64,000 nt of DNA from Balanoglossus misakiensis. Taxonomy: Eukaryota; Animalia; Hemichordata. A model generated the notes under the pieces. That model was not told the DNA's origin, did not search any database, and worked only from the letters and a program-made list of their open reading frames with translations. Numbering within the stretch: the first letter of the stretch is position 1; each line of letters starts with the position of its first letter. The translations under genes and the position numbers were made by a program. Location: assembly GCA_040954595.2 (NCBI GenBank), contig CM082597.2:2900265-2964264 (forward strand), read 5' to 3'. Below are positions 814-62,917 of the stretch, piece by piece.

Positions 814-3800
814 TTATTGAGATTTGGCAATTTTGCCAAAGTCTACCATAGCATACGCCACCGATTCTTCTTCTGGTTTGGGTTTCACTGGTGGTTTGGG
901 CTTAGTGCCTGGCTTCTGTGGTCTTCCACCTTGGAATTCTAGGTCAGCGTATGTAAGTCCCTCCACATTTGCTGCTGGAGGCTGGGGCTGGGGCTGTGGC
1001 TGCAAGTGTAAAATAAACATAGAATAACATCAACATGCAGGCCTCGAAATCAGTTGTGACTTAGACATTTATAGATTGGTAGTCAGCCAAGCAAACTTGG
1101 AAGTCAAAGTTAAATTCTTCGTACATAGTAAAACTTATATTCCGTGAAATCAATGTATATTTTATGGCAACATGCATGTATGCCTGTCAGTAATACAGCG
1201 TTGACATGTCAGTGAAATTTTCTGCCTATTCAGTAGCACAGATGAGATAGCTGCACCTACTGGTTGTCAGTGGTGACTATCCTAGTCACTAAGGAGCAAT
1301 CAGTAGTCAGCTGGCATGTGACTATACTGCTTACTTTGAGCCCTGTATATTAAACATGGCAAGAAAGTTGTCTAGTTGTATGTGCAGCTTGCTCTCTATC
1401 TAAAATCACACTCACTTGTTCAGCCTTCGGAACTGCAACTTCATATGGATTTTCTTGTTGCTGGCTTGGTGGCTTTGTATCTTTAGACCTAGCTGGTGGT
1501 GGTGGATTTTCAACTGGTACATCATCATATGGACGCTCTTCCTGGGTCTTTTTGGCTTTCTTTGGTTTTGGCAGTCGTTTTTTCGCCTTCCCTCCTGTTG
1601 GAGCTGGAGTCACATCAGCATAGGCAGTGTCTGGAGCTTTCTTCTCCCCACCCTTTCCTTTGTCAACATTTGCATATGCAGATCCTTCATCTTATAGATA
1701 TGAATAAATGAGAGGTGATTTTAATGGAATTTTGATGGAACTGCCACAGCATTGTCCAAGATCAAAGAGTAAAATATCTTTTGATATGTTGCTTTCAAAT
1801 CGATATATAAGCACCATCTGGCTTGTTCTTTTAATTTAGGAGAAAAACTCAAAACACTCCTTACTGAATTATAAAAAAAGATATCCTGACTTACGTGGGC
1901 AATATGTGCCAGAAAAAATATGATTCAAGCAAAACAGCACAATTTGTTGTACCGGTACATGGGTTTGCTTACTGTCACTGATACATTGTTGTGGTATGTG
2001 AAGCAAACTCATAAATTGAAGCAATTTCTTGAAAATATCGAATGCGTCATAGGGACCAGTTATGCACAATACCTTTCCCGTTAGTAAAAAATGGTGGTAC
2101 TGCTTGTGTACCTTCAAGTTTCATATTGGCGTATGGATTGTCCTCAGGTTTTGGGTCTAAAATATGAGAAAAAGTATTATTTCATAAATTAATCAGAGAC
2201 CTCTTGTAATAAATCATTTATCTGCGCAATCACAATAAAACTTTGGTAAAATATTTAATAGCCTTTGTTGAATTCCAAGCTGATCAAACTTCATGATAAG
2301 TAGGAGTTCCCGTGTAAACCAAATACATCTAAAGGATATTAAATACCTTGTTTCTTTTTCTTTTTCATTTTGACTGGAGCAGCATATACTGGGAAAGGTG
2401 TGGCTTCATCAGTTTTAACCGTTTTAATCATTTCCTGGTCACCATCAGTTACATAGGGATTTCCTGCTAAAAGGAAATAGGGAAAGAGAATGTTTTTAGT
2501 CTTTATGTATAGTCATGTAATATTTAAATATAATGTGGCAAGATTTTGTTTTCATCCAGTTGGTCAATATTTTTGTTAAAAACACAATTAGTAAATATCC
2601 AAGAGTATCAATATATGCATGCATATACCAGTTGCCTGAAATTGTTAAATTCATTTTAGATCACTACATGGGAATTGATGAGAGCAATGCAAAATTTAAA
2701 GGAAGTTTAAAGTAAAAGCAGGTACTATGACTCAGACTTGAATTTGACAATTAAATACTGTGAAGTAGCTATAGACTGCAACTGCTAGTTTGCTAACCAC
2801 TACACCGACATTACTTAAAAAGTACCTGGATCAGCAAGCTGTGGTGATAAACCGCCAAAAAAGGAATCTGCATCTTGTAATTCTCTGAGATTGAGAAGAA
2901 TATTAAGTGATCATACAATAAAATACTAGTTAAATTACAAAGGAGATGTCCACTAGAAGTTTTGAAATGTGCACCTTTGATCAAGTCCTTCTGTTCATGG
3001 TTATTACTTCCATTGATACTCAAGTCGATGTCAGAAGCAGACATTGCTGGATTATCAACTCCATCAAACGAAGTCTCTACAGTGTGCCTAATAACCAATG
3101 GAGCATTACAACTAATAAAACATGCAACGTAACTGACAGTTGTTTGATTGTAGGTCTTTGATTAACATACTGTAAAATGGAAAATTTTCACGAAAGATGA
3201 ATTTTCGCCAAGTTTGCGAGAACCAAAAACACGATAAAAAATAGTCGTGAAAGAACAATGTCTACAATAGAATGTAATTGTCGCCTCTGTTAATATCGCA
3301 AAAAATTTCTTGTCGCGAAATTTGCCCGTTTTACAGTAGATACATGTGCATACACACTATGTGTAGCTACGATATGAAGATTAACGTACTCCATATGCAT
3401 TTAACCCTGCCTCGGTGAGCTCACCAAGAAAACCATGGTTGATACTCAGAATAACAGTTCTGCCAATAGTTACAGATAATGGACCTTTAACATTTACATG
3501 TAAAATTTCTGAGTCAGGTTGATGTACAGTTAAGATATACTTACCCATTTTTCCCATTTGCTTTTTCTATTGAACAATAATGAAAAAAAAATGATTAATT
3601 TTATCTGAATACACATTTCAATTGTGTGCAAGAAGGTAACTGTAAACAAGCTGGTGTATCAGGTAAATAATTACAACTCTGATGGGTCCTCATTTCTTCG
3701 TCACTGTACCTCAAGCCTATTTGGAGTTTCAAGCTCATGTAAGACACTAGTACTAGTAATGTAATAGTGTTTTACTCCATTTGAGGGCCTATTGACCCTT

Positions 3801-6800
3801 TTTAAAGGGTTGCATTTCTATGCATGGACAATTTAATATCGAATGGAATATACTGTTACTTAGCTCAATACTCATTGAAATTGTTTCTTGAAATGAGCGG
3901 CATTTTACATAATTACATAATTGATGAACTTGAAATTTGAATGGGAAAATTTTCACTCAGAATAAAAATAGGCCATATGTTATAATTTTGGCCATTTGTT
4001 TGTTGCCAATAAATGTAATTGCTGATTTGCATTATTATAGATTGAGAGCTGGTTTCATACTTTTTTTAATCTGGGCAAAGTTCCTCCATATGAGAATTGC
4101 CAATACTACTACAACAACAGCCAAAACTGCAATTGATGCCCCGAGGCCTATTGCCAGTGTGGTGGAGGGATCTGCATTCGATGGGGAGCCTGCAACAAAG
4201 CAAATAAAATCTGTAGATAACTGCTGCACTCATCGCCTTAGTCATTTGTTATTTAAATGTAAACACTATTTCCTTCAAAGAAATCTACCAATATACCAAA
4301 ATGTGCGCCTCGGCATGGTATAGGCATTATTACATTTTACACAAAACTTCATTTATGTCCAAAATGGCAATTTTGTCTAACCTTTTGGCTAAAAAAAAAA
4401 ATTGCATACCCATGATGCATTTACTCACCAAAAATCAACTTATATATACGTGCACCCTAGGCTAACGTCTTCAACAACACGTAATAAAAAGCGCAAATAA
4501 TCCAAGACGAATGACAAGGTCTTAAAGCATGAATGTTAGCGAGCAACAATATAGGAAATGGAAGTATGCAGTGTTAGACAAAAAGGAGTTGTAGATAAAT
4601 GAGTAAAAAATTTGAGGTTCTTCAGGATGGCAACCATTGTCATGGTAATACATACCAGTCGATTCATCAGGGGTTTCTGTATGGAAAGAGAAAATAAAAG
4701 ATTAAAATTTCTATGAAATCAAGGCTGTCACGAAGCATATTGAGAGTTAGTTTGTGAATTTTCCAATGAATGCCTATCCCACGAATATATACTTTGCATG
4801 CTTGATGCATATGTTGGTGTGTGGTTTGGATCACTTTATTTTTTTGAGTTAATATTTAGTGTGATTTTTTCCACATCTGAAACAAAATCTGCATTACCTA
4901 CCTAAGGTAGACTGGATTGCTGGTGGGTAACTTTGGCTTGCCCCAAGAATATTTGAACTGACAACAATAACGCTGTAATTTGTTTTTGGAAGCAAACCAG
5001 TAATGGTCCCAAAGTTAGTCGTCATTTTTTGTGTTCTTGTCCGGTTATCTCCATTTTCATTGTTTTTCCAATACTCCAGTTCAAAATCTTGGGTATATCC
5101 TCCATCAAACCCTGGTACCCATGAAAACGTTAAGCTTTCATGCGTTCTGTTCATCAAAATAACATTATCGGCTGGGTCCGGTTTTGCTGTATACAAAAAA
5201 GAGCAAGTTGGTATATTGCACAGTGTACTGGTACATGAAGGTCCTCGTAGGGGTACATTGATGTACTGTCGTCTTCTTGGATTTGGTCAAACATATCTCA
5301 GAAAGCATCCTCATCTTGAAATTGGTGAAGTGCAGCTGTCATCAGGTCGCCATTTCATAATTCCTGTCAACTTTTACTTGTGATTGCTGCTTAAAATTGC
5401 TAATTGAAAGGGCCTACATAGCAATATTTGTCTGTCATGGTTATTTAGAAAGTCACAACAGGTTCCTTATATTGCTGATATTGTAATATAGGTTAGAGAA
5501 GACCCCGAATTCTGCTAGTGCTAATACCTCGGTCGAAAAGATCTTTCGTTGTGGATAAGCATCGAACATTGGTCAAAGGGTTAATGAGGAAATGTAGATT
5601 AAAATAAGCATCTTTAAAAGAGAACAATTATGACAGTAAATGTCTATGACAACTAAAGTGAATAATAAAGGAGTAGAAACTTACTGTGGCCCGTTAGGTT
5701 CACCACAAAGACAATATCAGCAACATCGTTGACAGCATAACAGCGGTATTCACCAAAATCATATGAAGTAATGTTAGATATAGTCAGTGTACTTGTTGTG
5801 TTGGTATCCAATTGCCTTTCCTGAATCATGAACTTGTTGGTATTATTGTTAATAGTTCTGTTAGTTTTGTCAAACCATGTTATATTGACGGCTGGGTTAC
5901 TGTTTATTTCACAGTTTAGATCCACAGTTTCTGTTTCATCTGCTGTTCCTCTTTTGTTGTTATTAGCATTGATTATATATGGCTTATCTAAAAGAGAGAA
6001 ACACAGAACATTTATTCAGAAGTATAAATATATTGCATTAATATACCCTAACTGAATGCAGATCATGTCATAACATACCGTACTTACATATTCTAAACTC
6101 TCATTTTGTATAGAAATATCACTTATAATTATAGGATATCTTTGTCTCTATGTAATATAAACATTTTTCTAGGAAAATGAATATGTATGTAGTAAAAAAA
6201 GATATCTCTCAGTTTCTCCCATTTACAAGATAAAACTTGAACCCAACCATGTATTTATCCAGATAAACATAGTAATAAATCTGAGCAAAGATGCAAATTG
6301 TGCCATGAAACTAAGCTTTATGGAAAAGATATGGCTTTGTAAAAATTGTACAGTAAAATGCAGTGCCAGGGTCAAATAAAGTTGTCAAGCCAGGAAAGCG
6401 AACTGGAAATTTGATTAATTCTCCCTATAATTTCTTTAGCAATATATCATGCAATTGTTGATTTTATTTAGCCAATACCATCACCAATCTATGTGCTTTA
6501 AACAGTTCATAACTTGTGAATTGTATACTTACAGTAAACAATAAGTTGAAAACTATTCGACTCAGTTTCATGGCTGAAGTAGGTGTTTTTTCCATGGCAT
6601 TTGTATATGTTCATGTTCAGATATGGTTGCAACATAACCACTAGAGATTGCTCAATTATTTTCCCATGGAAGATTCCTTGAGATTCTTCAGTCTTCATTA
6701 AAATTTCATCACCACCGTCTATGATTGGCCTGTCATTCTTATACCATGATAATTCAGCTACAGGGTTGCTGCTTTCTGTCACACATGTCAGTGTCACATT

Positions 6801-9800
6801 GTTTCCTTCTAACACAGGAGATTCCTTGTCTGATATTAATGATGTGCTGTTTGGAGGAACTGAAATAACAATGTCAAATATACCTTATAAATCTAAAATT
6901 TAGAGACACACTTTTAATTTTGTGCTTTTAGCTCAGATAAGAGTTCAATGATAAGTTTGGAATGATACATTGCTTACTTGTCATAATAGTTTTGTAAAAT
7001 TGTTAAAAATTACCAGCTGTTACTTGGAAAAATTATTTGACTCGATGGCAACATATAAAGGCAAAACTACAAATCAAACAGCAAGATCATTGTCTGGAAA
7101 TGAATTTGTTTGTCATCAATTTTTTACTGATAAAACAACTATTACTATTATTAGGTACAGAGGTTGGCCTTGGACTTCCACGTTGCCTTGACCTAAAATC
7201 AAAACATCTAAGAAGGGCATGCCCCATAGGCTGCTAGGTAAAAGGTCACACCATCATAGCAAAAACCATGGTGATGCTATGGAGATTGCTGTCATATTTG
7301 AACATTGAGTGAAGTGTTCACGAAAATGTTGGTTTTGTCTTCATTATTTTTCTCTAGTTGAGTGGAATAACTGAGGTGTCAATGGAAAATAACCATGACT
7401 TTGGGTATTGTGATTATAAGGCATGTTTTGCCTAGGTAAAACAAAAATTGTTAATTTTACACACTTGCCTATGCAATTTTGTTACATTTTACATAAAACA
7501 ATTTCTGAATGCATATTGAAATCTGAAAAAGAAAAAACAACAACTGCAACACAGGGTATTGCTGTAAACATATGGCATTTTAGTTGAAATAGGCCAATAA
7601 GTTAACCAGACTTTGTTGACTAATTTTTGGATGAACTTTGACCTACTTTTGCATGTGATATCTCCTTGATATCTTTGTGTGAGCTTTGATTTTCTTTTGC
7701 CAATCTTACTTAAGATGGATCAGTATAGATGGGACCAAAATTTCCTTTCTGAAGTGGTTACATTTGAACTTTCATATTTATACTAGAAGGCAGTTCTTTT
7801 TAATTATTCAGGTTTGCAAATGATGAGCCATTATACCTCACATATATTCCATGTAAACAGTGTAAGTGCCTTAGACACTGATGTAAACCGGTAGAATATT
7901 TCATTGAAGCCGCCAACACATTTATTTTAAATATATTATATTACATAAAAAAGTCGTACGGAACGTGTTTTAAATTAGCCTTAAGTTTCAAGGCGCCCCA
8001 CTAACTGTGTACAGGTATGCGCTGTTATGCGGATGGTTTCAAGACACCCGCACTCCAACGCACGTACACAAAAAAAAGATGGCTGCTCACTGTTTCGGCT
8101 GAGCGGTTTACGATCGATTCTATCGGCATTTTGAATGCCAAGTAACATACAACACAAGAACTAACGGAAATGTAAGATGTATAATAATAAGGTTATTACA
8201 AAAATTCCGCAAAGTATGCACGAGGACATTAGCGCAGCGATACTGGGCGCTAATGTCCTCGTGCATACTTTGCGGAATTTTCGTGATAACCTCATATTTC
8301 ATAAAGGACACTTATAAAGATTGAGACATGCTAAGCTTTTACATGTAATATTGTATTTACTGCATATGCTACATTTCAGCGATGATGGTTATTGCAGTAT
8401 AGTACTCACAATGTACTTCAATCTGTTGCGTTGAAGAATTAACTGGGCGTTGAAATGGCAATGATGTCGACTGGCACTGAAATACCGCAGCATTATGAGA
8501 AGCATGAAGTGTAATTGTTAACTCCTGTGTTGTTATTTTGCCACCATGGTTTCCATCTGTTTCTTCGGGTGTCTTTAGGTTTTCCTGAGGGTTGTCTATA
8601 ATTTCAGTTTCATTTTTGAACCATTTGACTTCAGATGGAGGGTTACTGCTTTCACTTGTACATGTCATGGTCAGGTTGGTTCCAATTTTCTGTGCTACCG
8701 TGTATCCACTAATGAAAACTGTAGATGGTTGAACTAGAACAATTTGTTCATAAATTTATTAAACTATGAAAGGAAAATGTACACGTTGACCATAACAACT
8801 GTTATGAAACCTAAATTGTTTGTCTGATAATTCTTTATCTGCTTTGTTATAAAGAAATTGTGATAAGATGTTCATATAATTCATAATTTTTGTATAAATT
8901 GTTATCTGTTGAAGTTCTGTAAACATGAATGTATTATCATTAAAACTCCAAAAACAACAAACAAAAGAAATAAAAACTTACAGTACACAGTAAGCTTTAT
9001 TTCCTCAGAGTCAGATGTTCCTGGGAAATTTGCATTTTTTGCTTTGCATTGAAATGTTGCATTGTTGTGATTTGGTTGCAAGGATGATATTGTGAGCTGT
9101 TGAGTAGTAGTAGTTCCGTTGTGTTTACCAGTTTGTGTTTGGGCAGTATTTGTTGTTTCATGGTTACCACCAAGCCATTCCCCGCCATTTTTTAACCAGG
9201 ATATTGTAGCTGCTGGATTACTGCTTGCTGTATCACATGTCAATACAAGTTCTTCATTTGCTTTCTTTACACCCGAAAAACCACTCAGTGATGTTGAAAC
9301 TGGTGGAACTAAAAAAACAGTAAGAAGTCAATTTCATATACACAATCCAATCTGCATGAATAGAAAACATTGGGAAAATCATGTTGGAACACCAAAGTCC
9401 TTTGAACAGATATGTATGGTGATTTAAAATAATGTTGCAATGAACTTCTACAGAAAATTGAACAGGTTTTCAGTTGCAAGGCACTTACACTATTTACACA
9501 AACAAGTTAGATGTAATCAGTCACCATTTAAAAATTCATACAGAATTTCCAACTTGACAAGAAAAATCCATTTACAGCACTTTGCTGATAAATATTTAAA
9601 TTGGAAAATAAAATGCACCTTTTCTTTTTTATACTAGCATTGTCAACTGGAGTGTGATTTAGACTCTTACCACATTGATTTATGAATTTCCTTTTCATTA
9701 TTTTAGGGCTGAATTTGAGAAAACATTTCTCCGTGTGCGTATTAAAATCCATAGAGTATTTTACAGACTCAGTGGTTCATTTCAAGGTCAACTGCTTGGC

Positions 9801-12800
9801 TTGATATACGCATGCAATAAGGAGAATACTGTCTCAACTCAGGCTTTTTGCAAGTCTAGTCCAGAAATATGCATTAAAATCTAGTTTAAAAGTTCAATTG
9901 GATTGTTTTTCAACAAAACTACGACTGCAGTTTCTTATGGATGAGTTTCATTATTAAATTTTCACTGTATATGTCAATATTTTAAATTTAGATTTAACGA
10001 GTTCTATAGTATTGCACTGAGACTGACCCAGTAAAGATTGCATTTGATGACCTGATCATGCAAGCAATGTGGCAACTACAGGGGTTTTGTATGGATTCTC
10101 CATGTTAAACTGTTGTTCATTTCTATTAATTCTCCTTTGTCTGACACCAAGAACAAAACCGCAAACCGGCAAAAAACATGTGAAATTCTTCTGGTATGTG
10201 GTAGTACCCATCAAGGAAGTACTTCTTGCATCCAGAGCAAACAGTGAATATGTACCGGTACATTGCAGCCTTGTGGTCACTCCAGCCTGCAGCATGCCCC
10301 CTTGCAACTCTTACAATGGGAAAGCCTATCGCCTGTCTATTACCCAAGTAATTTCCTTAAATCATGTGAAAATTTTAATAATCCATCTAATACTATTTCA
10401 CATATGAAATGGCATGTACAAAATTTTAAAAAAAAAGTTACTAACAAAGACACAACAGGATAGTCCAATTAATTCGTTACGATGTCTTCAAAATAAGGAA
10501 ATAATGGAGGACACTGTACTTACATGTACTCATAAACTCCACGACAATGATAATCAAACATTTCATCATCTGCACAAGACTGGACATTTACACATTGACA
10601 AAAAAACAAAGCTTGCAACTTAAAGGCACGTAAGCTGCAACTGAATAAAAAATTTAAGTTTTAAATAATCTCATATATGCTTTTAATTATGTCTATTAAA
10701 TGCTATTTCATGATAATATATCAAGCTCAACACTTATTTATGACAAAATGGCCAAAAATTAAAGAAAAACGAAAATTCCTGCAATTTTAAAAAAAGTGCA
10801 ATATTGCGATGAAAAATGAAAATATGATGTCTCAGTGGTGTACATTTACTTCCATGAGCTCAAGTGGATGAGATCATGTTTTGTTTATGAAGTTTCATAA
10901 CCGGAAATGCAACATTTTCATTGTTTCTTGCATTTTCCCACGGTGGCGGCCATAATCGCTTGCGGCAAAGCTTTATTATTTATCTGGTTAAAACTTGCAT
11001 ATGCACTCATATTTAGGGTTTATAATGCTTGTGTATAGTTCACTGCCTTCATCTGCATGGACTAATGGTAGTGCAGTTTGAAACAAAAATTATGAAAATT
11101 ATCCCAAAAGTTACAGCTTACGTGCCTTTAAGGCGAAATAGCTGCCCTGGTTGATGCACATATTTCGAGATATGTTACCAGTCAAAGTTTGATAAATATA
11201 AATATCCTTTCACTCGAAATATATAGTCGTAGCCTAGGGTTCCAGTCTCATTAAAACTGGATCAAATAGAAATAATGCCAAATTCATCACAAAATTTTGC
11301 AGTGCAGTACGTGCCATTATAAGCTGCAGCAAAATATGGAAACAAAGATCATGCTGGTATTACAACACATGACTGTAATGTCAGGCTCAAGTCTTCTCGC
11401 ATTCACACTTGCCAACTGTTACATTTCTCCAAGGATGTGTACGGTGTATGACTAATGTTATGATAATATTACAACTGTATATATATATATATATTAGCAT
11501 GTATACTGTAAAAAAATAATTATATTATATCATGCTACCGTCTGCCATTCTGATTGGACGAGAGCTCAATCCAGCGATGCTAAAATACTCAATATAGCAC
11601 TGCTAAAACGGGCCCCTGAACTAGCATATGCGGCAGCAAAATGTGCGGTTAAACCACAGTCGCATGTATTTAAACCAAATGAATAAAATAAAAATACTGT
11701 TGAATTAACGGACGTTTTATTTTTGAACTTCTCTGTGGGAATATTTGGTATTTTGCCATGCATGATGCCTGTCTTGTCAATTTTGTCGTCTGCTTCATGT
11801 TTAATGCTCGATCCCAGCCGCTCCTTAATACAACCACACCCAACCACAAATAATGTAAATATCAATACTTACAGCTTACAATGAAAACTCCTAGCTGACA
11901 TGATGGTGGTGATGAAGCTGTCGCCATATTTGAAGCATAGCATTTATATGATGCCTGATTGTCTTTCCTTTCTAGAGTCCATTCAAAATTATTTGTTACT
12001 GTATTCCCGTTGTCTGGAGGTGCTGTCTCACTCACATTTTCATCAGTGTTATCATTAAACCATTGTAAAGTAGGCAGAGGATAGCCGCTGTCTGTCTGGC
12101 ATGTTATTGACATGTCTGAACCAAGCAGGTAGTTTGCTTTGACTGGAGCTACCTGGATACAAGTTGGCACATCAGGGGGGTCTGTCAAGAGAAAATTCTG
12201 ATATAGTCATTGTCAATTTAAGTAATAAAATGGACAGGCATATCACAAGAATTTGAAAAGCCCACAATATAAACACACAAGCATGAGCAAGTGCATCCAG
12301 TAAGGATATTGCATTTACTCTCATCATATCGTACGTATCAGCATAGGCATCACATCTCTGGAATGATCGAATCTTTTAGGAACATGTGATGTCGCATTAC
12401 ATTGGCATATGCATCACATCTGGCATCAGTTACTGTGATCGCATCGTATCACCAATCCATTTGCTAGTGATCCATCTATGAACACTTGTGCATTTGAAAG
12501 TTATGGTCGACACAAGGCTATTGTAGTCACCTTTACAATTATGTAAAATCTAGTTAACTGTTTGTGTAACTAAAACCAACAGAAGAACTGTATTAAAATA
12601 TAAAAGACTTTGAAACATTGTCAAAACTTTATAAATACATATAAGACATGTTTTGAAAGCATTTAAAATGACTCAATCAACATGAGTTAATATGCCCAGA
12701 TCAAGGAAATAAAAAAGGATGTAATAATAACCTCATAAACTAAGAAAAAATTTAACTGCAAAATTTAGTCGCCCAAACAGGTGCTTCATTCTACAATAAA

Positions 12801-48051: not shown

Positions 48052-51000
48052 ATGGCTGACAGAGAAAAACAATGTGCTTTACTTCTGGTTTTCATAATTT
48101 TGATATCTATCGACAATGGTAAGTGGAGAACTCTTATCTAGCCATCCTTTGTTTCATCAATATTGGATTTTCTAACACCTTATTTTGTCTTCTCAGGGAC
48201 GAAATCATGTGAGGTTGAAATTAACATCGCAGACGATAGTGTTTGTGAAGCAGTTGGACAGCCGTCTATCTTAAATTGTTCGTACGCCGTCGACTCTTGC
48301 AACACCGAGCTTCTGGAGTGGTGTAAGAATGAGGGTACATCTTGCTCTACAATCATACAGCTATACGATGGAATTGAATATAATTTTGCTGGATATGAAC
48401 GGTTTTCATTCATAAGTGGTACAACTGACTTACTCATAAATGAAACTTTACTCGAAGATGAAGGTGTATATACCTGCAGTATTAGTACTACAGGCCTGTA
48501 CATTGCTGAAAATGTAAATCTCGACGTCTTAGGTATGTAAATGGTCGTTAAGCGGGAAATCAATTTATGATGTTATGTCACTTGGTATTATACACTAGTC
48601 TAATATGTGCCCATACTCACCAAGTGACAAGTAAAGAGGACATTTTACCACGTCATTCTCTGTAATGTGTGAAGTGTATAGTTGTAAGGTGAATGCCAAA
48701 CCCGCATCAGTGAAAGACATTTCTCTATGGGAAAAATTCGAAAGTATAATTATCTTGCATAAACATATAATAGCACGAAGTGTTTTGCTGTATTTTGAGT
48801 ATCAACAAACCATGAGGGCGCTTTTCACATGGTGGCGATTTTTTTCAACTCTCAGCTCTTAGTGCTTAAAACGTATTTAGTTGAACCAAATGTAACTGTT
48901 TACATATCAGACGATTTCGTAGAATTGATTTCAGGCAGCAAAATAATATGTAGCGCTAATAGTGTTAGACTCCATAGGAATTAATGAAACCAAGCTCCAA
49001 CATTTCAATTACTCAATATGCAGATAATCCAAAAGTTCCATTGCAAATTTTTATGAGTTTGTTAATTTATCACATATAGAGTAAAATGTACGGTAAACAA
49101 AGACTTGGTCGGGTTTTTGAGTGAACATTGAATAGTTATTAGAGTAACTTCAGTTTACCTTTGAGGGCGATTGGTAGTTATTTAAACATAATATGCATCT
49201 CACAAATTCTGCCCAACAGGTATACCTCTAGTCACCGTCCTTATTCCCAAAGCATTAATAATTACCGCTGTAATATTGCTTTAATTGTGTGTATCGTAGA
49301 GGACACTTAATGCACTCAACATTTCATTCAACCCATCTAGAAGTAGTATAATAGGCTAATAAAACTGTCTTTATCCAGTGACTTTATCCGGTGTACGTAT
49401 TGACATGAAGCCCGTCACAATTGGTTAATGTGACTATGTTTATTATCGGTCGAAAAGTACAAATTAAAGTGTGTTTTATTTGTTACCTACTTGCTTCTTT
49501 ACCTCATCTATGCTTTCCATTTCATATTCATTAAATGTTATTTATAAATGACATATGTCAAATTATCCTTTGATTGATCCGGTTTTGTTTTCTTATTCAG
49601 AAAATGCACCGACGTATGCAATGGTAGAATTTGATTCCCCAGCTATAGAACATGACACAGTTTTCATGATCTGTCACCACTCAAATGTAAGCTGTATATC
49701 ATATGTGTGGTACAAAGGTGGCATGCAGTTAAATCAATCATCAGACGGCATATATTATGACAGATGGAATTCTACCCTTATTATATTCAATGTCAGTAGG
49801 AGCCATTCAGGATCATACAAATGTGAGGCAATAAATGCTGTTGGAAGTGCGACAAGCGAAGAGGTATACCTTGATGTCGAGTGTAAGTAATGTAACTGTC
49901 AAACTCCAATTCACAGTTGGTGTTTTGATACTACATTCTGGGTATCAAAATAATCAGTGTTAGATCATAATATACTGATCATGGCATATTTTCTCCACCT
50001 GTCGAGATACTAATATTATTGAGATAATATCTCGCATTCTGTACCGGATACCATCAGAAACTCTATATCTTCCGCTCTGAGATGGAGGCTAAATTGGCAT
50101 ATTTTCCTAATCACCATTTCGTTAGTTACAACACTACCTGTATGATGATAAGTAACACCTAAAATTAACAACACAGACAGTTTTTTTCCAGCAGTTGTCA
50201 ATCTTCACTAATACTCACTAATAGCACGGTTATACCCAAACAAAAATCTATCTTAATTTCATATAAAACTCTTTGAATCATTAACGTTTAATAATAAATC
50301 CTAGAAAATATCCACAATATAGTTCTCAAAAATATATTTTTATTTATTTTTTCTTCGGAATTAGTCCCAGCATCGAATGTCGAAATATACGGTGGATGCG
50401 ACGAACACGAATGGAGATTCTCATGTCAATGTGATGCTAATCCAGATGATGTAAATTACACCTGGACGTTCAACGAGAAATACACTATCTATGGGCAGAA
50501 TATAACAGTGAATACTACCACTTGGAAACATGGTACTGTCCTGTGTGAAGCATGTAATATGCATGGCTGCGATTCACAAACTTTACCATACAAGACTTGC
50601 CCCACAGGTATACACAACCCCTTTCTTAATTATAGTATCAATATCAAATTACCCTACATTTCTTACGGCTTACACTGGACGTTCGATGTATATAAGTAAA
50701 GTACCTTACATTGTATTTTATGCTGATCACATTTGTCGGCAGGAGCTGTTGCATTCATTGTTCAATGGATATATTTCAGAATCATTCATATTTTAAATGC
50801 CTAACTGAACGTCGTCATTTTTACTTCTTTTAGACTCGGGAGTACTCTGGTGGGCAATAACCCTATGTGTCATACTTGGATGTGGATTGATTGCTGGCGG
50901 TATCGGTCTTGCCATATATCTTATAAAACGTCCAAAACGGTAAAATGATTTTTCGCAGTTAATATTGATCTGTTTTATATGATCACATTCAACATTCATG

Positions 51001-54036: not shown

Positions 54037-56452
54037 TGATTTGGATCATGGGACAAAATGACATCACCAGATTTGGCTCTTTATTTAGAATGACTTTGTG
54101 TTAAAGGAGTGAAATGGTGTTATAGAGGACACGTATTCATATCAGCCTAAAACCTTTTGAAGACATGATCCTCTTCGCTTTGACGATTATCTCTGCCGTT
54201 CATTTATCTGGTAAGCTCACCTTGCAATACCTATTATATGTTTTGAGTGAATAAAACTATAAACTTTCATAGACGTTGATATATTGAAAGCAGAGAAAAT
54301 GGTGACATGTCTGTTTCGGGCAATATTTGAACACTTTTTATTTACATCCAAAGAAAGAAGAAGTCAACGAGTTGTTCACAGTTACCAAAGGCTGACTATA
54401 TTGCTTGTGTTAAAGAATCATGCTCTTAAATCAGCTGAAAATCAACTTTCCCATACATGGTATCATTGTGCCACAATTGGTACTGACACACCCTATGTAC
54501 ATGCATGTATTGTAGTGTCTTCTGTTGCAATCTAAAAACTGTAAAACAGGCGTTATATTTGATTTTTCTGCAAAGAGGTTTACAATAAAGAGGTCATTTG
54601 GTCAGCAAATGCTTAATTGATATCAGGTATCAGTAAGCACTTCATTGTCAATTCGGTATTTGTGTGATTACCTTCTTATGCAAAATACAAAATATATTCA
54701 TGAAAAACACACCATTAAGTCTATGAACGTAGCAACTTATAACTGTCAATTATGTTTTCACAGGGACAGTCGACAGTTTGTCGAAACCTATTCGAGTAGA
54801 AGCCGTTCAAACAGGTGATGACGTGTATGTTTATGTTGGCGAAGACGCATTATTGCCGTGTACATACACCGAAACCAGAGAAACATTGATTTGGTATTTT
54901 AATTCGATTGACTCTGCAAATGTGATTGTCATTCGTGAAGATGGACGTGACCCGGTATTTAGCCCCGGCTACGATCGCCATAGCTTGGTTGACCAGGCGT
55001 CACTGGAAATCACGTCAACAGTTGTTGAAGATAATGAAAACTATACATGTGAAATTTCTGGTATAGGTATTCCAAGAAGCCATGACACCATACTTTTGGA
55101 TGTATCAGGTAATTTAAACGGATGCTTGAAGGCACAACTTTCAATCCTTGGTTCTCGCATTAGTAGGTGCTCCTCTTAGTGAAACAAATAATATGTGCTT
55201 TTCTGATTACATGGTTTTCAAAAATAGGGTAGGTAGCTTGGTATGGAATTTTTTATTTTGCTACTTGTCTGGCCGCCAAAGTGTAGACGATGCTTTTCCA
55301 AGAAATATCAGAATTTTCTTCAGCAATAAGCTCTAGAACAACGACAGTTTGTATTTTATCCTCCCAGCTACTGAGAACGTTTGTTAAAATTGTGTGTTTG
55401 GTGTTTTCTTTTTTATGATCCATTTGCCGCATCACATTCGTCTCTATCTATGGCAGCAGCTTTGATGTTGCCATAGGTTTTTCTACTGAAACCACCTGTT
55501 CTTTTTGTACATTCAGTACAAATATAACACTACTAAACCATCGACGTACCTCATGTTTATTGACATATCTTGTCTATGGCGAATCAATAGGCTATATACA
55601 TGTATGATGTTCACATTTTAAACTACTTTAACGTCACAGTCCCCAGCGCCCCAAGTGTACCGACCATCACTATTGAGGAAGAGCCCGTCATAGAATATAA
55701 TACAGTGACAATGATCTGTCTATCGAGTGGAAATCCAGCTCCAACCTATAAATGGTATCAAGAAGGAAACGATATACCCGACAAGGGTAGATACAATGTA
55801 AGTTCGGATGGAACTACATTTTCCATTGACTATGTACTACGTGAAGACAGCACAACGTACACATGTAACGTGACCAATACCTTCGGAACAGAGAAGACAG
55901 ACGTTTTTCTAGATGTATTATGTAAGTCAATGTCATAACATTTGCTCAGTTTCTCTGTTTTTATTTCTGGGGTGGCATTTCTATTTGCTGTTAAAGTTCA
56001 ATTCTTGCATTAATATCATATAATTTTAGATGAACCTGACGAAGGTTGGCCGGAATGTTCATTCAGCTACAACTCCGGAGATGAATATGCAAAAGCTGGA
56101 GACCTTGCCGAAATCACCTGCACCGCCACAGATGGAAACCCATATCCACAACTCGTGTGGTTCAACAGTTCTACTGTGCTGGATGGTGAATACACTGTGC
56201 CAGAAGAAGGCGGTGACGAAATAACATCAAATATATTCAGGTGGAACTTGACTCAATTCGATAACGGTCTAATATTTGACTGTCATGGTAACCATGAGAC
56301 CATTTCTACACCTAACATTTGTACCACAGGCGCACTCGACATTAAATGTAAGTACATGTATGCAACGAATTTCAAGTCCAATGCATTTTACCAACCAATG
56401 GATTTTATTGTATCAACTGAATTTGTCTGTCTTGCATTAAATATATTATGAA
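54037..56452 (+). repeat. Inverted segmental repeat arm 2 (5' end of gene E)
   Basis: Begins tgatttggatcatgggacaaaatgacatcaccaga (reverse complement of ~47947-47981) and ends about 100 bp into the intron after Ig3. Confidence 0.92.
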
Positions 56453-59400
56453 ACCAATCTAACGTATATGTTGCTTGCGATTTCTATTCGAAAAGTCAAT
56501 GAAATATTCAGTTGTCCGACAATGTTTCATAATGTCCAATGTCAACAATGAGGCCGCGTACAATAATGTATTGTTTTCAGTATGCTTATTATATACAAAT
56601 TAAGACCGGAGTACGTCATATTATTACCAATAGCATTCTACCGGTATGCCCTTGCACAGGATATACAGTACATCTCACCATACATGTATGTCCTATAGTC
56701 AGGAGTGTCTACACATCACACATGTCACGTTTCTTTTGATGCCTATCCACAGACGAACCAAACATGCCATGGCCAACCTGCACAAACTATACAAGTGCAG
56801 ACGATTACATAAAAGAAGGTGATGAGATGATGATAGTTTGTGAAACAGTCGACGGCAACCCCTACCCTGCACTAACGTGGTTCAATGGCAGCCAAGAAAT
56901 GCCAGGGTACTACTCTCCCCCGTCTGACTGTGATTGGGAATGCTCTACGAATAATACATACATATGGACGCTGACGAAGTATGACAATGGTTTGACGTTC
57001 ACGTGTGAAGGAAACCACCAAGAAACCCTGACGAATGGAACTTGTGATCTGGGTCCCTTAGATGTTAAATGTGAGTACAACGCTAACAAGAAATGTATGG
57101 TTTCCATGAACAATAAGATGGACCTTTCACAATGCGTGATATGGTAAGATGATGTAATAATGAACAAAAGTTAGGGAACAACATTGAGATATCACATATT
57201 TGACCTACAAGCAGACGACCTCAAGCACTAGACTCCTACATCACTTCCGCTTGTGAACAAAGTGTTTTAATGGGGAGCAATCGTGCTGCAAGTAATTGAA
57301 AGTACACAATGACGACATCAGCTCTTCTGAATATTTTATTGATTAAAACTAAATTGCAAAAATACGTATCCCAGTAGTACTAGTATTAAACTGAACAAAT
57401 TGTACCTGACTTGAGTTCTGTATGGTGTCCTTTTTTACAAAGATAGCCCAGAGGACCCCGTTTGCAGTGACCATGGCGGCGGCACGCAAACTGCTGAAGA
57501 AGGCGAGGATTACGCAATATCCTGTGAGTCTATCGGTGGCAATCCTCTGGCAACGCTTAGATGGATCAATGAATCTGACGGAAGTGAGATGGTCATGACA
57601 TCACCAGGACCGGAAGATAGTGGTAGTACTACTTGTAACCACACATGGACTGTTACTAGAGCTGACAACCAAGGAACGTTTAGATGCGAGGCGACTAGTA
57701 TGGTCCAAACAACACCACTGAACTGTACATATGGCCCTATTATCATCAACTGTAAGTTATTATCAAATGTTCAGCCCAATAAGAATACACGAACTGACAC
57801 CAAACAATTAAGTTTCATCCTTACACACTTCACGATCATCTGTATCTGCAACCTCTTTATCCCAGTCTCACTCTCTCTCTGTCTCTCTCTCAGTTCCGCC
57901 GAATCAGATCATCTTGTCAGGTTCAGATGACCAATTTAGAGTGAACGATGTATGGATACTGACCTGTACAACTGATTCTAGCAACCCAGCTGCGGAGGTG
58001 CAGTGGTACAAAAATAACGAACTGCTTGACGACGAACACATCGTCGTCAAGCCAAAAGAGGAGACATCAGGTGACTTCAACGGAATGTGTGTCACGCAAG
58101 ATATCGACATAACATTACAAGCTGATGACAATATGGCGGAATATTTTTGCCAAGCAGCTACATTACACTACCAAGGAATGAATTCTAATGCCATGATGAT
58201 AAACGTAACATGTATGTATCCATTTTCATACAAATTCGTAGCATCACAATTCTCAAGTTGTTTTGGAAGTTTTTAGGAGCATGTGACCATCATTAGCATT
58301 ATCGTTGGTCAGCGATTGGTCACTTATTTTTCTCTCTTTTACCACCATGTAAAATACAAGCCCAGGAACTGGTTTGAAGTTGACTTCTAGTATACTATAC
58401 ATGACAAAATCCCTAGTCGATGACTTTCTTGGTACAGTTCCTCCTTCAGAGCCCGAGAACTGCGAAACAACGTTGGCAGGATACGAAGGTCCTCTTGTTG
58501 TAGGAGACATGTTGACTCTGACATGTACATCGTGCAGTAGTAACCCCGAAGCCATCTTGATGTGGTATCGTGAAGACGCTTTGGTTGAAGACGGACTGAG
58601 TCCAGTTGAATATCACGAGGGTCATTACAGTGGAACGATATCATCACAAGAATTCTCACTGGAAGTATCAGTTTGGGACCATGGTGTTGTTTTCCACTGT
58701 GAAGCATACAACGAACTATTTGAAGATCAGTATTACAAATCTGACACGACACAGCTTGACGTGCACTGTAAGTACATTGTTAAATTCACCCCATGTCAAT
58801 TATAGCATTGTATGTTTTTCTGTAGGCCATGCATAGTGCATGCGTAGTTGGTATGCCTTGGCTGCGCGAGTAATAATTTGGCTGTGTGAATGCATTCACA
58901 GATTCACCTAAGATTGGTGGGACCATATTTGCGGACACTTCCGGTTCATGCAGAGCATGCATAGTTGGTACGCCTCGAGTGTGTGATTAATAAGTTCACT
59001 GTATGAATGCTTTCGCAGATTCACCTAAGATTGGTGGGACCAGGTACAACAACACAGCTATCGAGGTGAATGAAACTGAGACTGTCGAGTTGGTCTGTAA
59101 AACAAACAGCAATCCACTGGCTACTATCACGTGGTTTGACCAGTTTCGCGACATTGTCGTGAATAACACCGAGAATCGCGTCATAAAGGAATACAGTTGG
59201 GACACTTTGACAGAGAGCAGGCTGTTTCTTTATGACGTCACTGTAGAAGATTCAGGGAACTACTCATGCGCGGGAAACAACTCCATTGGTGTGGAAACAT
59301 TGAATATCGAGGTCATAGTGATTGGCGGTATGATATTTCATCAAACACTTTCCTATTCCTGCCTTTGTTGGCCTTCAATCATGTTGATTAAGCTTAATAT

Positions 59401-62198
59401 TCGTGCTAGAATACTGTGAGAATAGTGAAGTGGCCAGTCGGTCCATTTATAGGTTAGAATGTGACTGTATTGTACGACAATATGACTATATATATACTTG
59501 TGCCATACGCATATTCGTTCAACTGCAACAAATGGGGTTTCATTTTGACTTTCCTTTAGTCCCAGCGATAGAGACAACAGCATCGACATTGGTCGGTTTA
59601 GTGGTATTCATAGTGATTGTCAGTGTAGCGATATTGGTAGTAGTTGTTCTTCTCATCGTTAGAAGACAACGGGAGAGTAAAGACAAAAGCGACAACCAAG
59701 CAGGTTTGGAAATGAGACCAGTTGACTCGTTATTTTGCTTCAGAGACTTTCAGTGTATTTGGTGATGCTGGTGGTGGTGGTATTGGTGGTGGTGTTGGTG
59801 TTGTTAATGGTGGTGGATAAGAGGGTATAACTAACAATGGCGTTGGTGATCGATAATTGATAACACTCATAATAATAGTTGCTCCTTTTCGGCTACATAT
59901 GTTCAAGGGAGGCTAACTGTTTGGCAAGTTAAAATAATGGATGAACGTGTTCCATGTCAATGCAGCTGAACATTTCCTCATCTTAATTTCCCCTTCTTTT
60001 ATTTATTTTCAGCTTCGATGAGACCTCAAGGGTAATGTGGCTTAATTTAATCACTCACACAATGTTTATATCTTAATTCATGTGTTATCACCTTTGTATT
60101 GTAAGTTCACTAAACACTATTCGTCACATTTGAAATCATACTTTCTCTTCCCCCATTTCAATGACAGGCCTGTCTACGCCGATTTAGAAGAAAATGACAT
60201 TCCTGAAAAGCACGAATATATGAAACTTGTGTTTCCTTTTGGTAAGCATACATCCTGTTCTTCTGTATATAACATGGATGTGTGATATTATCCAAGAATA
60301 TGGTTACGGTTTCGCTTTTACGAAATTAGCAAAAAAAATCAGTCTGGCTGTATCAGTTCTTTATACATGTACATCGATATTACATTTTAAATTCAAGAGA
60401 GAGCCAAGCTTTGCCTTAACACGGCATCGTTTCTGTCTCACAGTCAAACAATTATGTCTCCTGGCAACTAATTCTTTCCTTGTTTTGTGTCTATTTGTGT
60501 TTTTTTGCTTAAACGCGCAGGTAAGGCAGGACGTGGCAGAAGGAGTCGCGACGACAAGGTGAGAGGCACGTTCAATTGCCACTTTATGGTAATCTGAGCA
60601 TTTATATGTCTCATATGCAAAATAAACCCCTCTGTTTACAACATTGGAATCATGACGAGTGCAGACCATGGTAATTATGCATATGTTTCGTTTCGTAGGA
60701 GACTTTTCACCAAGACGTGGACGACGGCGGTTATGACAACTTCGAGATACCATACAAGTCTATCGCATTCATTGAAGACATCTCCATTGGGATATTCACT
60801 AAACATATCAAAGCAAATATACATTTACCTGGGAAGGGAAAGGTCGCTGTCTGTGTCAAGACCCTAAAGCAGGGTAATGTAACGTATTAAGATTTGTTTT
60901 AAATTTTCCTGAACAAGTTTGTTGCCATAGTCAGTACAGAATATACATTACTGATAAAACAGAAACCTGACTTTGTAATTTCCTGTGAAGCGGTGTCTTT
61001 CCTTTGCATCTGATTGTGTAAAATGTGGAATAATTGATTGCCCGTCACCGATTCGCACTCTAGCTGCGCCTTTGGACCAGTCGGCATGCCTTGACATCTT
61101 CAATTTTACATTTCCAATGTGGACGCATATGACTGTGTATATTTCAGTGTGGCCTCTCATTACTTTCGTTACAGCCAATGACGAGCTATCTCAGCGCTGC
61201 ATCTTGAAAGAGATCCAGTTCATGAAGACACTCCCTCGGAATGATAACATTTTGCAGATGATGTACTGCTCTACAAAACAAGGTAACACGTTCAAATTAC
61301 TGTCTGTATGTCTGTATTTAACCCTTTCAACAGTGTTTACTGTACAAATATCATGATTGTGTTGTGATGGGGATGTGCACACGCTTCATCAGAACCCCAG
61401 ATCTCAAGTATACATGTAAGTTCAACCGTTTCTTTCATCGCAGCACCATATTGTCTGATTTACGACCACTGTTACCAGGGCAACCTGAAGCATCATCTAC
61501 AGGGCATGCGCAATAAAACTATCGGAGGAGCGGACGAAGATTGTCCTATAGAGTTGTGTTCATATGCCTTGCAGATTGCAAAGGGGATGTCATACCTGGA
61601 GAAAATACAGGTATCGAACAATTACTGCAATAAATCTGTCTCAGTTTCTCTAAACCTGTTCCTTCCATTCATTCTTTTTGTACACCTGCAATTCCTGTAC
61701 TTTTTTCAATATGAAGCTGATGGATCTTCACATCTTTAGTGTGTACACAGGTCACTTTCCGCGCGAAACATACATGTGGGCGATAATGGTGTTTGCAAGA
61801 TATCAGGATTTGAGTTTTGCAGCAATGTTATGAGCTTAAGCACCCTTGATGAGATGACAAAGGTAGGATATTGTTAATATACACGTCACTAGATATACAC
61901 AAATTCGATAACACCATAATAACATTTCAGAATTCTCTCTCTCTCTCGTCCATTTTACCTTGGCATTCATGATCACACACACGTATATATTTATCTATCC
62001 ACCTACAGAGTCGTCTTCCAGTTCGCTGGATGGCAATTGAATCTATACAGAATTGCATATACACAGCCAAATCGGATGTCTGGTCTTATGGAATCGTCCT
62101 CTGGGAAATTTTCACTCTGGGTAAGGATTAAACTTTGACCGACATGAAATGAATGGAGTATTCTAACATCACCGATATACAGATTTATACGACATGTC

Positions 62199-62229
<31 letters not shown>

Positions 62230-62917
62230 TGTACCGTATGTACCAGTATGTATGTATGTATACCTTTACTTTTCAACAATTTTTTCTATCTGTGAAGGTG
62301 ATAATCCTTATCCCGGCATGCCAATAAATGACGTCATATATGAAGTCAAACAAGGACACAGAATGGATGCACCATCTTACGCTGATGATGTTATGTGAGT
62401 AAATTAACAAAATGCGCCCAGAATTCATACATGTCCTTTGGTGACTTCAGATTAATAGTGGGATCTCACAGGTAAAATAAGCATGTGTGACGCAATTTTG
62501 CTTTAGGGAAGTTTAAATTCATCTAGTTTCATTTCTTGCTTTTCAAAGACCAGAACTTATACCATATTATTTAATGTTTAAAAATTGTTGTCATAGGTAC
62601 GCTATAATGTGGGAGTGCTGGGTGGAGGAACCTCAGAGCCGACCATCTTTTCTGGAGATGGCCAGTATCATCGAAGTAAATTACTCGGACGCCGGGGTAA
62701 TTTTTTTCTTTTGTATTTTTGGATATAAAACATGTGGGCGATTGACAGTGATTTTTAGCAAATGTACCGGTATACCGGTATATTCGCGGTGCATGTTTTG
62801 ATTGATCAATTTCAAAAATTTACCTTTTTGGTTTTGATGAATAAATCGATGATTTGTTGGTTTTTCCAGAGTTATGTCAAGCTCCGTGAAAATGCATCAA
62901 TCGAGGGAACGACATAG
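54165..62917 (+). CDS. Gene E: 8-Ig receptor tyrosine pseudokinase (FGFR/RET/Tie-class kinase fold) with a gene-C-like ectodomain
   Basis: Leader 54165-54210; V 54764-55108; Ig 55640-55921, 56030-56347, 56753-57070, 57443-57751, 57894-58211, 58438-58767, 59019-59327; TM 59560-59703; juxtamembrane 60013-60031, 60168-60241, 60521-60558; kinase 60699-60873 (VCVKTLK), 61175-61282, 61444-61610, 61740-61863 ([16 protein letters not shown]), 62009-62120 ([27 protein letters not shown]), 62298-62394, 62597-62696 (CW..P..RPSF), 62870-62917. Confidence 0.88.
62199..62260. repeat. (TATG)n microsatellite in a gene E intron
   Basis: atgtatgtatgtatgt... Confidence 0.85.

Follow-up and report, generated by a model that had tools for sequence, protein, structure and literature searches.

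Five intact immunoglobulin-superfamily receptor genes lie within one 64,000-nucleotide stretch of the Balanoglossus misakiensis genome (the window), in the order A(-)/B(+), C(-)/D(+), E(+). We regard the chances as evenly balanced that this cluster works as an inhibitory/activating paired-receptor system, with B and D as partner chains.

Layout of the receptor cluster

All five gene models, spliced from window coordinates, run open from ATG to stop with AG and GT at every internal exon border, and every Ig exon is in phase 1. The cluster also holds a decayed copy of the last exon of C. Pfam matches (E <= 0.01) were obtained for 34 of 37 open-reading-frame stretches, which were candidate exons picked by eye, and a PDB sequence search returned generic Ig matches only. 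The features, in order along the window, are:

814..13640, minus: common body of A (I, C2x4, I, FN3, linker, TM at 4189-4061, four tail exons)
999-814, minus: last exon of A, tandem ITIMs, Tyr spacing 32 residues
16050..23324, no strand: tandem duplication of the upstream-leader-V unit of A
17165..18521, minus: A cassette 2, leader exon L2 (18521-18452) and V2 exon (17485-17165), Pfam V-set E 1.2e-10
20972..22071, minus: A cassette 1, leader exon L1 (22071-22002) and V1 exon (21292-20972), Pfam V-set E 3.1e-10
24541..27839, plus: gene B, divergent from A, spliced model
37605..47863, minus: gene C, tail with three ITIMs plus TxYxxI at its end, spacing of the last two Tyr 33
47864..48051, no strand: spacer between the C and D start codons, putative bidirectional promoter
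48052..50944, plus: gene D (leader, V, I, third Ig, TM, tail), spliced model
about 53550-53860, minus: relic of the terminal ITIM exon of C with acceptor and 3' UTR, from alignment
54037..56453, plus: inverted 2.4-kb tract, 91.4% identical to C 47981-45622
54165..62917, plus: gene E (L-V-I-C2x5-I-TM-juxtamembrane-pseudokinase), 21 exons, intact
60175..60228, plus: ITAM-like pair YxxL-x10-YxxL in one juxtamembrane exon of E
60699..62696, plus: tyrosine-kinase-fold domain of E, from Pfam and alignment

The first-pass annotation had described a unit of a long ITIM receptor on the minus strand and a short V-set protein on the plus strand, occurring twice; both copies are present as intact A/B and C/D models, and the short proteins do have tails of fewer than 10 aa. 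B (269 aa; L-V-I-TM, with an extra Cys pair in V) ends in a 9-aa tail and D (345 aa; L-V-I-Ig-TM, with an extra Cys in V) in a 5-aa tail. In both pairs the short-tail gene stands head-to-head with a gene carrying Tyr motifs, but the arrangement is tight in C/D alone, where the ATGs are 189 bp apart, A and B being separated by 2.5 kb. Repetition of the cassette as a unit is not demonstrated: B and D have 24% of V residues in common and do not group in the V or I trees, which did not settle the placement of either gene.

The stretch is contained in one sample. Pieces of A and B are present in one bulk run of one sample (X3); none of the listed runs with the stretch is recorded as RNA, but X3 behaves like it. 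In this run the A piece ends at exon border 11873, the B pieces terminate at exon borders 25046, 25930-26222 and 27823, and the last intron of E appears as a spliced GT..AG joint. The X3 contigs leave most of C, of D and of the E ectodomain uncovered, which is not evidence of silence. A further leader candidate for A near 24797 was rejected, having no in-frame ATG.

Divergence and putative exchange among the V-bearing ectodomains

Gene A (1119 aa; L-V-I-C2x4-I-FN3-TM and a 229-aa tail) has two V exons. Since each has its own leader and upstream block, V1 and V2 are probably alternative first cassettes rather than tandem domains. The leader exons L1 and L2 are identical, and the halves of the duplication are 93.9% (16050-17893/19839-21701) and 99.6% (18180-19774/21731-23324) identical. 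A false duplication of two haplotypes is disfavored by the near-double depth of the collapsed contig over the duplication in run X1 (54.7 vs 28-33 on the flanks); the junction 19774-19839 is spanned by no contig shown. Four X1 differences within V2 are V1 bases and were left out of the allele count. If V1 and V2 were allelic, they would be two alleles with 23 residues different.

The V1 and V2 exons differ at 31 of 321 nucleotides, as against 35 of 1508 in the flanking introns (Fisher p = 1.7e-8), a divergence four times the intron rate. At the protein level 23 of 106 residues differ, and 17 of these 23 changes fall within a 40-residue loop/front-sheet window that was picked post hoc. The exons give dN 0.109 and dS 0.089, a dN/dS of ~1.2 whose excess over 1 is not established.

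Genes C (1247 aa; L-V-I-C2x4-I-FN3-extra exon-TM and a 299-aa tail) and E (1259 aa; L-V-I-C2x5-I-TM-kinase, without FN3) have their ATGs 6.3 kb apart. The tract common to them spans promoter, leader, V, I and first C2, with 89% amino acid identity in V and >90% in I and first C2; later exons drop to 42-57% nucleotide identity, and we infer that the 5' stretch is a conversion tract. The V exon differs at 26 of 345 positions, compared with 22 of 600 in I plus C2 (p = 0.013) and 65 of 1350 in introns (p = 0.06), and its dN/dS is about 0.5. The earlier statement that differences between near-identical duplicates concentrate in the V domains is thus strong for V1/V2 and weak for C/E. The third ITIM tail, described as a relic, was confirmed as such: it aligns to the last exon, acceptor and 3' UTR of C with a score of 115 (200 shuffles: mean 32, maximum 56), and its ITIM is disrupted by a stop and deletions. 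AlphaFold2 prediction of the C V domain from a 6-row alignment gave a pLDDT of 36, too low for use, and a complex prediction of the C and D V domains without alignments scored 0.27 against a mark of 0.34, a value that does not bear on binding either way.

Tail motifs and hemichordate relatives

Strict ITIMs number three in A and three in C, counts matched by 0.01% and 0.1% of 20,000 shuffled tails, and none was found in five true-nephrin tails. The A tail matches that of Glandiceps XP_077985011 (E 7e-17), which retains the terminal motif pair despite 34% tail identity. YD/ExV motifs are present in the tails of A, C and the Glandiceps receptor; in nephrin, motifs of this type are Nck sites.

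E was correctly described as a pseudokinase receptor with the N-terminus of C. Judged from its residues, E is a receptor tyrosine pseudokinase with predicted inactivity: it retains the beta-3 Lys but has HRS in place of HRD and GFE in place of DFG, losing both Asp residues, and shows no Gly loop GxGxxG. The HRD Asp is absent from all nine hemichordate kinase rows (eight genes) and present in an amphioxus relative, and the pseudokinase state and the motifs are conserved in three hemichordate genera. The TM of E has no charged residue. Its YxxL pair has a shuffle p of 0.001 with a 6-12 spacer, and the tandem YxxL/I is complete in four of the six family proteins whose model covers the juxtamembrane stretch, the other two retaining the first YxxL and the second Tyr. 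The spacers are 10 in E, 8 in Glandiceps XP_077985271, 10 in Saccoglossus XP_006822742 (by eye) and 6 in Ptychodera XP_070547361, a model that ends before any kinase. Because the spacer of E is one residue past the 6-9 consensus of Huene et al., and because YxxL pairs also occur in a catalytically intact amphioxus kinase, the pair in E may be ordinary docking sites.

The closest relatives of the cluster genes are hemichordate; C, for example, is 48% identical to Ptychodera XP_070547385. A tree built on the final C2-I-FN3 region places A, C and E within a 19-row all-hemichordate clade (SH-aLRT 93), and a separate 46-row clade (SH-aLRT 99) contains seven looked-up members named nephrin or nephrin-like, including Saccoglossus and Ptychodera. 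The family is, on this tree, a separate expansion beside true nephrin. The term "nephrin-derived" used earlier needs a qualifier, as a true nephrin exists alongside this family in hemichordates. Models homologous to A, C and E are annotated automatically (Glandiceps XP_077985011 as "nephrin-like", XP_077985271 as "FGFR2-like"), and further RefSeq members include Ptychodera XP_070547361/385/387/551, with four Ptychodera paralogues on scaffold(s) of one length, and several Saccoglossus models. These hemichordate models have automatic names only, and our literature search found no paired-receptor description for them.

In Glandiceps, the ITIM receptor and the ITAM-pseudokinase map to scaffolds that have the same length (26,684,518 bp) and are 84-90% identical over I/C2/C2, which indicates that ectodomain exchange between tail types recurs. 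This pair fits, on its sequences, a conserved inhibitory/activating system. Its V domains lie outside the common block (26-34% identity), a poor fit to a common ligand should binding be through V. Long receptors of Glandiceps carry the V type that the short genes have here, and the orthologue of the A tail has a head unlike the V of A (z 0.3-1.3) with a B-like leader (z 4.5). Searches of other hemichordates, which were weak and made without gene maps, did not find short head-to-head partners. A Glandiceps V-I-C2 query for short relatives gave 10 matches among 2740 candidates, none a named hemichordate, and a profile search for B/D partners, covering proteins of 2201-5000 aa only, found proteins resembling hemicentin, titin and perlecan as well as Ig-repeat proteins of bacteria. 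In a word-seeded homology search with one C exon as query, none of 57 candidates scored.

A proposed paired-receptor system and competing explanations

In the paired-receptor mechanism, SH2 phosphatases recruited to the ITIMs would make A and C inhibitory, whereas E would activate by way of its ITAM-like pair, carried on a kinase scaffold that is predicted to be dead. For B and D we predict a role as partner chains in the same cell, made from common divergent promoters; they would associate in cis with A and C, the binding site then consisting of two V domains, in the manner suggested for FF/FcoR of Botryllus. Gene conversion would hold the binding tip of E matched to that of C, allowing one ligand to engage both receptor signs by analogy with SIGLEC11/16, and A would swap V heads through choice of promoter cassette 1 or 2. 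The ligand may come from outside the cassette, either from microbes or as a polymorphic self molecule whose gene lies elsewhere, and this would account for the V-loop diversification.

The cluster was originally proposed to be a recognition locus in which each cassette co-inherits a lock and its self key. An immune-type, SH2-coupled role is supported by the Glandiceps ITIM tails, the ITAM-like counterpart and the V divergence, but the lock-and-key part is not favored. In this version B and D are self markers bound in trans by the linked inhibitory receptors A and C. It agrees with the head-to-head placement of each short gene with an ITIM receptor, and matched pairs would be inherited together through their tight linkage, for which tgrB1/tgrC1 and NKR-P1/Clr provide parallels. 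We nevertheless think it improbable: one B faces two A heads that have diverged at V, and E, with the V of C on an activating-type tail, would respond to the self marker D. Both the presence of the short-gene V type on Glandiceps long receptors and the non-A head on the orthologous tail also argue against it; the FF/FcoR pairs of Botryllus offer a cis precedent, and a Botryllus review argues against the simple version for such pairs.

A cell-adhesion or wiring code like nephrin/Neph, Sidestep/Beat or Dpr/DIP, with V cassettes as cell identities and tails recruiting Nck/SHP2 for junctions or cytoskeleton, is a serious though clearly less probable explanation. The nephrin-related C2-set/I/FN3 body and the YD/ExV motifs speak for it. 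The alternative promoter-leader-V cassettes of A on a common body resemble clustered protocadherins, the 32-34 residue Tyr spacing would also suit SHP2-activating tandem sites such as those of Gab1, and some pseudokinase receptors, among them PTK7/Otk, act in adhesion. Against this stands the separate true nephrin of hemichordates; moreover, homogenized ectodomains bearing ITIM or ITAM-like tails, fast turnover (the relic exon and the young duplication) and loop-focused divergence are more usual in immune clusters than in adhesion families. It is very unlikely that the cluster is a neutral birth-and-death array whose orientations and common tracts came from local duplication and inversion, leaving B and D as truncated paralogues or decoys that lack a dedicated partner. 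That B and D do not group as sisters, that a relic exon and a 99.6% duplicate mark ongoing rearrangement, and that two head-to-head pairs would by our reckoning arise by chance in ~1 in 16 given the gene order, all agree with such an array, but the closeness of the C/D start codons, the excess of V1/V2 exon over intron divergence and the retention of motifs and pseudokinase state across genera do not.

Several known systems resemble the cluster. The Botryllus schlosseri fester family and fester co-receptor (FF/FcoR) genes form head-to-head pairs interpreted as a cis heterodimer (PMC12582321, PMC12065747), and likewise set a short-tail gene against a Tyr-motif gene. The layout of a long ITIM gene and a short partner head-to-head, of which the first-pass annotation knew no description in nephrin-derived form, is already known from Botryllus (PMC12582321). 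In contrast to the nephrin-related C2/I/FN3 bodies and single-pass partners here, Sushi domains occur in FF/FcoR and three TM segments in FF; none of our 37 stretches had a Sushi match in Pfam, so the likeness is one of working only. The activating member is a pseudokinase here, unlike in FF/FcoR, homology between the systems is not shown, and polymorphism and co-expression have been demonstrated for FF/FcoR. SIGLEC11 and SIGLEC16, an inhibitory and an activating gene, are described as head-to-head ~9 kb apart and homogenized along a 2-3 kb upstream-to-V/C2 tract (PMC5701461), which the C/E spacing and 2.4-kb tract of equal content resemble. Siglec-16 signals through an ITAM adaptor, whereas E has its own ITAM-like pair and dead kinase and an uncharged TM. 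Hydractinia Alr genes are likewise clustered invertebrate IgSF genes with V-set, I-set and FN3-like domains and ITAM/ITIM tails, but Alr1/2 bind homophilically and are proven allodeterminants, and the available part of the report mentions neither a kinase member nor a head-to-head short partner (bioRxiv 10.1101/2022.03.04.482883). Nephrin, SYG-2 and Sns are alike in the CD80-like C2-set array, I-set and FN3 before the TM, and Tyr-rich tail with YDxV-like sites, but unlike in that the present genes form a separate clade with a V-I N-terminus, 7-8 Ig and tandem terminal ITIMs. Geodia cydonium has SAML, SAMS and RTK, with two-Ig ectodomains and an ITIM in SAML. These parallel our genes in comprising a long and a short form plus a receptor kinase, all with Ig ectodomains that are related, and they are discussed in self/non-self recognition, but the RTK polymorphism is described as even along the molecule rather than focused (PMC11926128).

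Phase-1 Ig exons, together with the Glandiceps A orthologue that has a B-like leader and V type, would fit V-head swaps across the head-to-head junction. We tentatively suggest, as a less than probable extension of the paired-receptor proposal, that an NK-like recognition system arose independently in hemichordates out of nephrin-related parts, with V-V heterodimers of an ITIM chain and a tail-less chain encoded head-to-head, an ITAM-bearing dead receptor kinase as the activating counterpart that gene conversion keeps in register, and germline V diversification by promoter-leader-V cassettes and such swaps. Our literature searches turned up no account of a hemichordate cluster of ITIM/ITAM receptors. 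Together with echinoderms, hemichordates form the sister group of chordates. With a defined locus that encodes candidates for the inhibitory, the activating and the partner chains, it can be tested directly whether NK-like signal balancing is older than the chordates and whether the head-to-head pairs of Botryllus represent a design that recurs. If an ITAM-like pseudokinase does serve as the activating half of the pair, this would be a new way of building a paired receptor.

Gene content and transcription of the locus

The window is intron-rich animal DNA (G+C ~36%), and 34/37 ORF stretches, a hand-picked subset of its ORFs, matched Ig, FN3 or tyrosine-kinase Pfam families (E ≤ 0.01). Coordinate-built exon models with AG/GT borders and consistent phases gave five intact genes, accompanied by one decayed exon:

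Gene A, 22071 or 18521 to 814, minus strand: long IgSF receptor with ITIM tail, spliced exon model
Gene B, 24541/24556-27839, plus strand: short partner, spliced exon model
Gene C, 47863-37605, minus strand: long IgSF receptor with ITIM tail, spliced exon model
Gene D, 48052-50944, plus strand: short partner, spliced exon model
Gene E, 54165-62917, plus strand: pseudokinase receptor, spliced exon model
Relic of C's last exon, about 53550-53860, minus strand: alignment score 115 (200 shuffles, mean 32, max 56)

The tails of A (229 residues, 9 tyrosines) and C (299 residues, 12 tyrosines) each contain three strict ITIMs, a count reached by 0.01% and 0.1% of shuffled tails, respectively (20,000 trials); ITIMs occurred in 0/5 true-nephrin tails. 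Past the predicted TM, B has 9 residues and D has 5. The anatomy described in the first-pass annotation, namely long ITIM receptors, short-tailed partners and a relic ITIM tail, was borne out. Between its FN3 and TM segments, C has an exon of 72 aa (40778-40560, minus) that contains Cys and has no Pfam match; a similar segment is present in Glandiceps and Saccoglossus relatives and absent from A and E. In C as in E, the TM exon is directly followed by a micro-exon of 19 nt (phase 1 to 2; C 39830-39812, minus; E 60013-60031, plus) and then by a phase 2-to-1 exon, which suggests that the Tyr-tail and the kinase-type juxtamembrane region have a common origin. By eye, a 162-aa ORF at 36326-36814 (minus), likewise lacking a Pfam match, resembles the C-terminal stretch of a protein encoded by non-LTR retroelements.

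Window-matching sequence came from three runs of one sample in one study. Run X3, which carries the guessed label 'DNA?', was read as RNA because its contig pieces stop at exon borders of A (11873) and B (25046, 25930-26222, 27823), and a single contig connects 62695 directly with 62869, spanning E's last GT..AG intron in spliced form. On this reading, that one bulk sample transcribes portions of A, B and E. X3 contigs also cover 52314-53400, the gap from D's end to the relic (one is 824 nt, depth 23, no differences); these unstranded contigs may represent the 3' UTR of D, or else divergent transcription that starts at E's copied promoter and runs through the relic.

A hemichordate family with pseudokinase members

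A profile of seven C2 exons matched 4917 representatives (E ≤ 0.001); among the best 150 of these, 30 of them looked up by name, the closest relatives were hemichordate (Glandiceps, Saccoglossus, Ptychodera). An 88-row tree built on the last C2-I-FN3 region (quick method, midpoint root; proteins of at least 1600 aa, alignments <180 aa and five redundant isoform/cluster rows left out) placed A, C and E in one clade with 16 named hemichordate proteins (SH-aLRT 93). Apart from it stood a 46-row clade (SH-aLRT 99) whose seven members with looked-up names (mollusc, echinoderms, amphioxus, fish, Saccoglossus, Ptychodera) were all nephrin or nephrin-like, so the locus family is a hemichordate expansion, kin of nephrin but not orthologous. 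Four Ptychodera members lie on scaffolds of one size (14,237,801 bp), as do two Glandiceps members (26,684,518 bp). Ptychodera XP_070547551 (P0029) joins E in the tree. This family member combines a long ectodomain, whose V carries Cys of the B/D type, with a tail of 17 residues; its scaffold size equals that of the C/E homologues.

Glandiceps XP_077985011 has the architecture and terminal motif pair of A (tail E 7e-17), and Glandiceps XP_077985271 has a kinase domain without the HRD Asp; the two are 84-90% identical over the I/C2/C2 block and only 26-34% alike in their V regions. Judged by sequence, the paired-receptor signal is conserved in hemichordate relatives. The HRD Asp is missing in 9/9 hemichordate kinase rows (8 genes, E among them); amphioxus CAH1247468 retains HRD and DFG.

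Within one juxtamembrane exon, E carries YxxL-x10-YxxL (shuffle p 0.001), overlooked in the first-pass annotation. The full pair is found in 4/6 family proteins with this stretch modelled (spacers 10, 8, 10, 6), and the remaining 2/6 still show its first YxxL plus the second Tyr; a Ptychodera model in this count stops ahead of any kinase, and three further kinase genes, modelled without a TM, were left out. Because a spacer of 10 lies outside the 6-9 used by Huene et al. (bioRxiv 10.1101/2022.03.04.482883), E's pair is only ITAM-like. Branchiostoma CAH1247468 (P0057) is a receptor kinase whose C2-set ectodomain is related, whose catalytic motifs are intact and which has two YxxL pairs; it may be an active relative of the pseudokinases found in hemichordates. 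Since this active kinase has such pairs, the motif is probably older than the catalytic loss.

Duplication and possible exchange of V-domain heads

By gene structure, A has two first cassettes: its V exons, V1 and V2, each own an identical leader exon within a duplicated unit. The leader/upstream block is 99.6% identical between copies, and its collapsed contig in run X1 has a depth of 54.7 vs 28-33 on single-copy flanks, which speaks for a genuine duplication. Between V1 and V2, 31/321 nt differ, vs 35/1508 in flanking introns (Fisher p = 1.7e-8); of the 31 changes, 25 are non-synonymous and 6 synonymous (dN 0.109, dS 0.089). They alter 23/106 residues, 17 of the 23 inside a 40-residue window from BC loop to C'' plus FG loop (p = 1e-4, window picked post hoc). 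Because dS is raised too, resistance to homogenisation accounts for the excess just as well as positive selection does. Both A leaders have an in-frame splice acceptor 14 nt ahead of their ATG (22085 and 18535, minus), which makes an upstream exon, or read-through from V1 to the second leader, possible. A dispersed high-copy repeat in introns of A and C (7955-8296, 16250-16592, 20031-20373, 45346-45603) also occurs inside the duplicated A unit and may have seeded the duplication.

C and E share an inverted tract (47981-45622 and 54037-56453, respectively) of 91.4% identity. Corresponding exons past it are only 42-57% identical, so E is apparently an old gene whose 5' end was recently homogenised with C, and the sharp step in identity at the tract edge points to gene conversion. 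The geometry is that of SIGLEC11/16: head-to-head, about 9 kb apart, with a converted tract of 2-3 kb from upstream through V/C2 (PMC5701461). Within the C/E tract, differences number 26/345 nt in the V exon (dN/dS about 0.5), 22/600 in I+C2 (vs V, p = 0.013) and 65/1350 in non-coding parts (vs V, p = 0.06). V-focused divergence among near-identical duplicates, proposed earlier for the locus, is therefore strong for V1/V2 and weak for C/E.

Start-to-start distances are 189 bp for C-D and 2485 bp for A-B. The V domains of B and D have an extra Cys pair in common, yet their identity is just 24%, and a B + D grouping was recovered neither in the V nor in the I tree; weak homology searches found no B/D counterparts in other species. 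The Cys pattern recurs on the long receptor of Glandiceps. Its leader is similar to that of B (z 4.5 vs shuffles; about 0 for the other three leaders in the window), and its leader-V is unlike A's (z 0.3-1.3, vs 10-11 for B, C, D and E). This is no more than suggestive of heads exchanged between long and short bodies.

Predicted function and relation to known systems

Structures and motifs are observed, while signalling sign, dimerisation and ligand are inferred in the following scheme, which we rank as the most likely and give about even odds. The A and C tails would recruit SH2 phosphatases as inhibitory-type receptors, and E would activate as C's counterpart through the tyrosine pair on its dead kinase scaffold. 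B and D would be cis partners, co-transcribed with the long receptors and creating two-V binding sites for a ligand from outside the cassette. The first-pass proposal that linked partners are matched receptor and self key fits poorly, as one B faces two diverged A heads and C's head also sits on activating-type E; we regard it as improbable. The nephrin-like body and the retained YD/ExV sites, which are linked to Nck, speak for an adhesion or wiring code, a possibility we hold doubtful, and neutral turnover of the array seems highly improbable. Further parallels to the paired-receptor scheme and its rivals are tgrB1/tgrC1, NKR-P1/Clr, NPHS1/KIRREL2, protocadherins and Gab1 spacing.

The layout itself is not new: publications on Botryllus FF/FcoR describe a head-to-head short-partner/ITIM-receptor arrangement with co-expressed pairs and a proposed heterodimer (PMC12582321, PMC12065747), like the window's pairs in layout but with domain content showing no homology to them. 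Hydractinia Alr (bioRxiv 10.1101/2022.03.04.482883) and Geodia SAML/SAMS/RTK (PMC11926128) are looser parallels. For the hemichordate ITIM/ITAM/pseudokinase family, no earlier description was found in the titles and abstract starts of a literature collection with few subscription papers, and 'hemichordate' and 'nephrin' are both absent from a 2025 invertebrate IgSF review (PMC11999971); gene-family tables of hemichordate genome papers could already include the locus genes. On its gene models the locus is real and intact, and its kind is conserved across three hemichordate genera, with a predicted function. It would be a new variation on two known designs, the paired receptor and the head-to-head co-receptor pair: one member would be an unusual pseudokinase with an ITAM-like motif, and leader-V cassettes would be used as alternatives.
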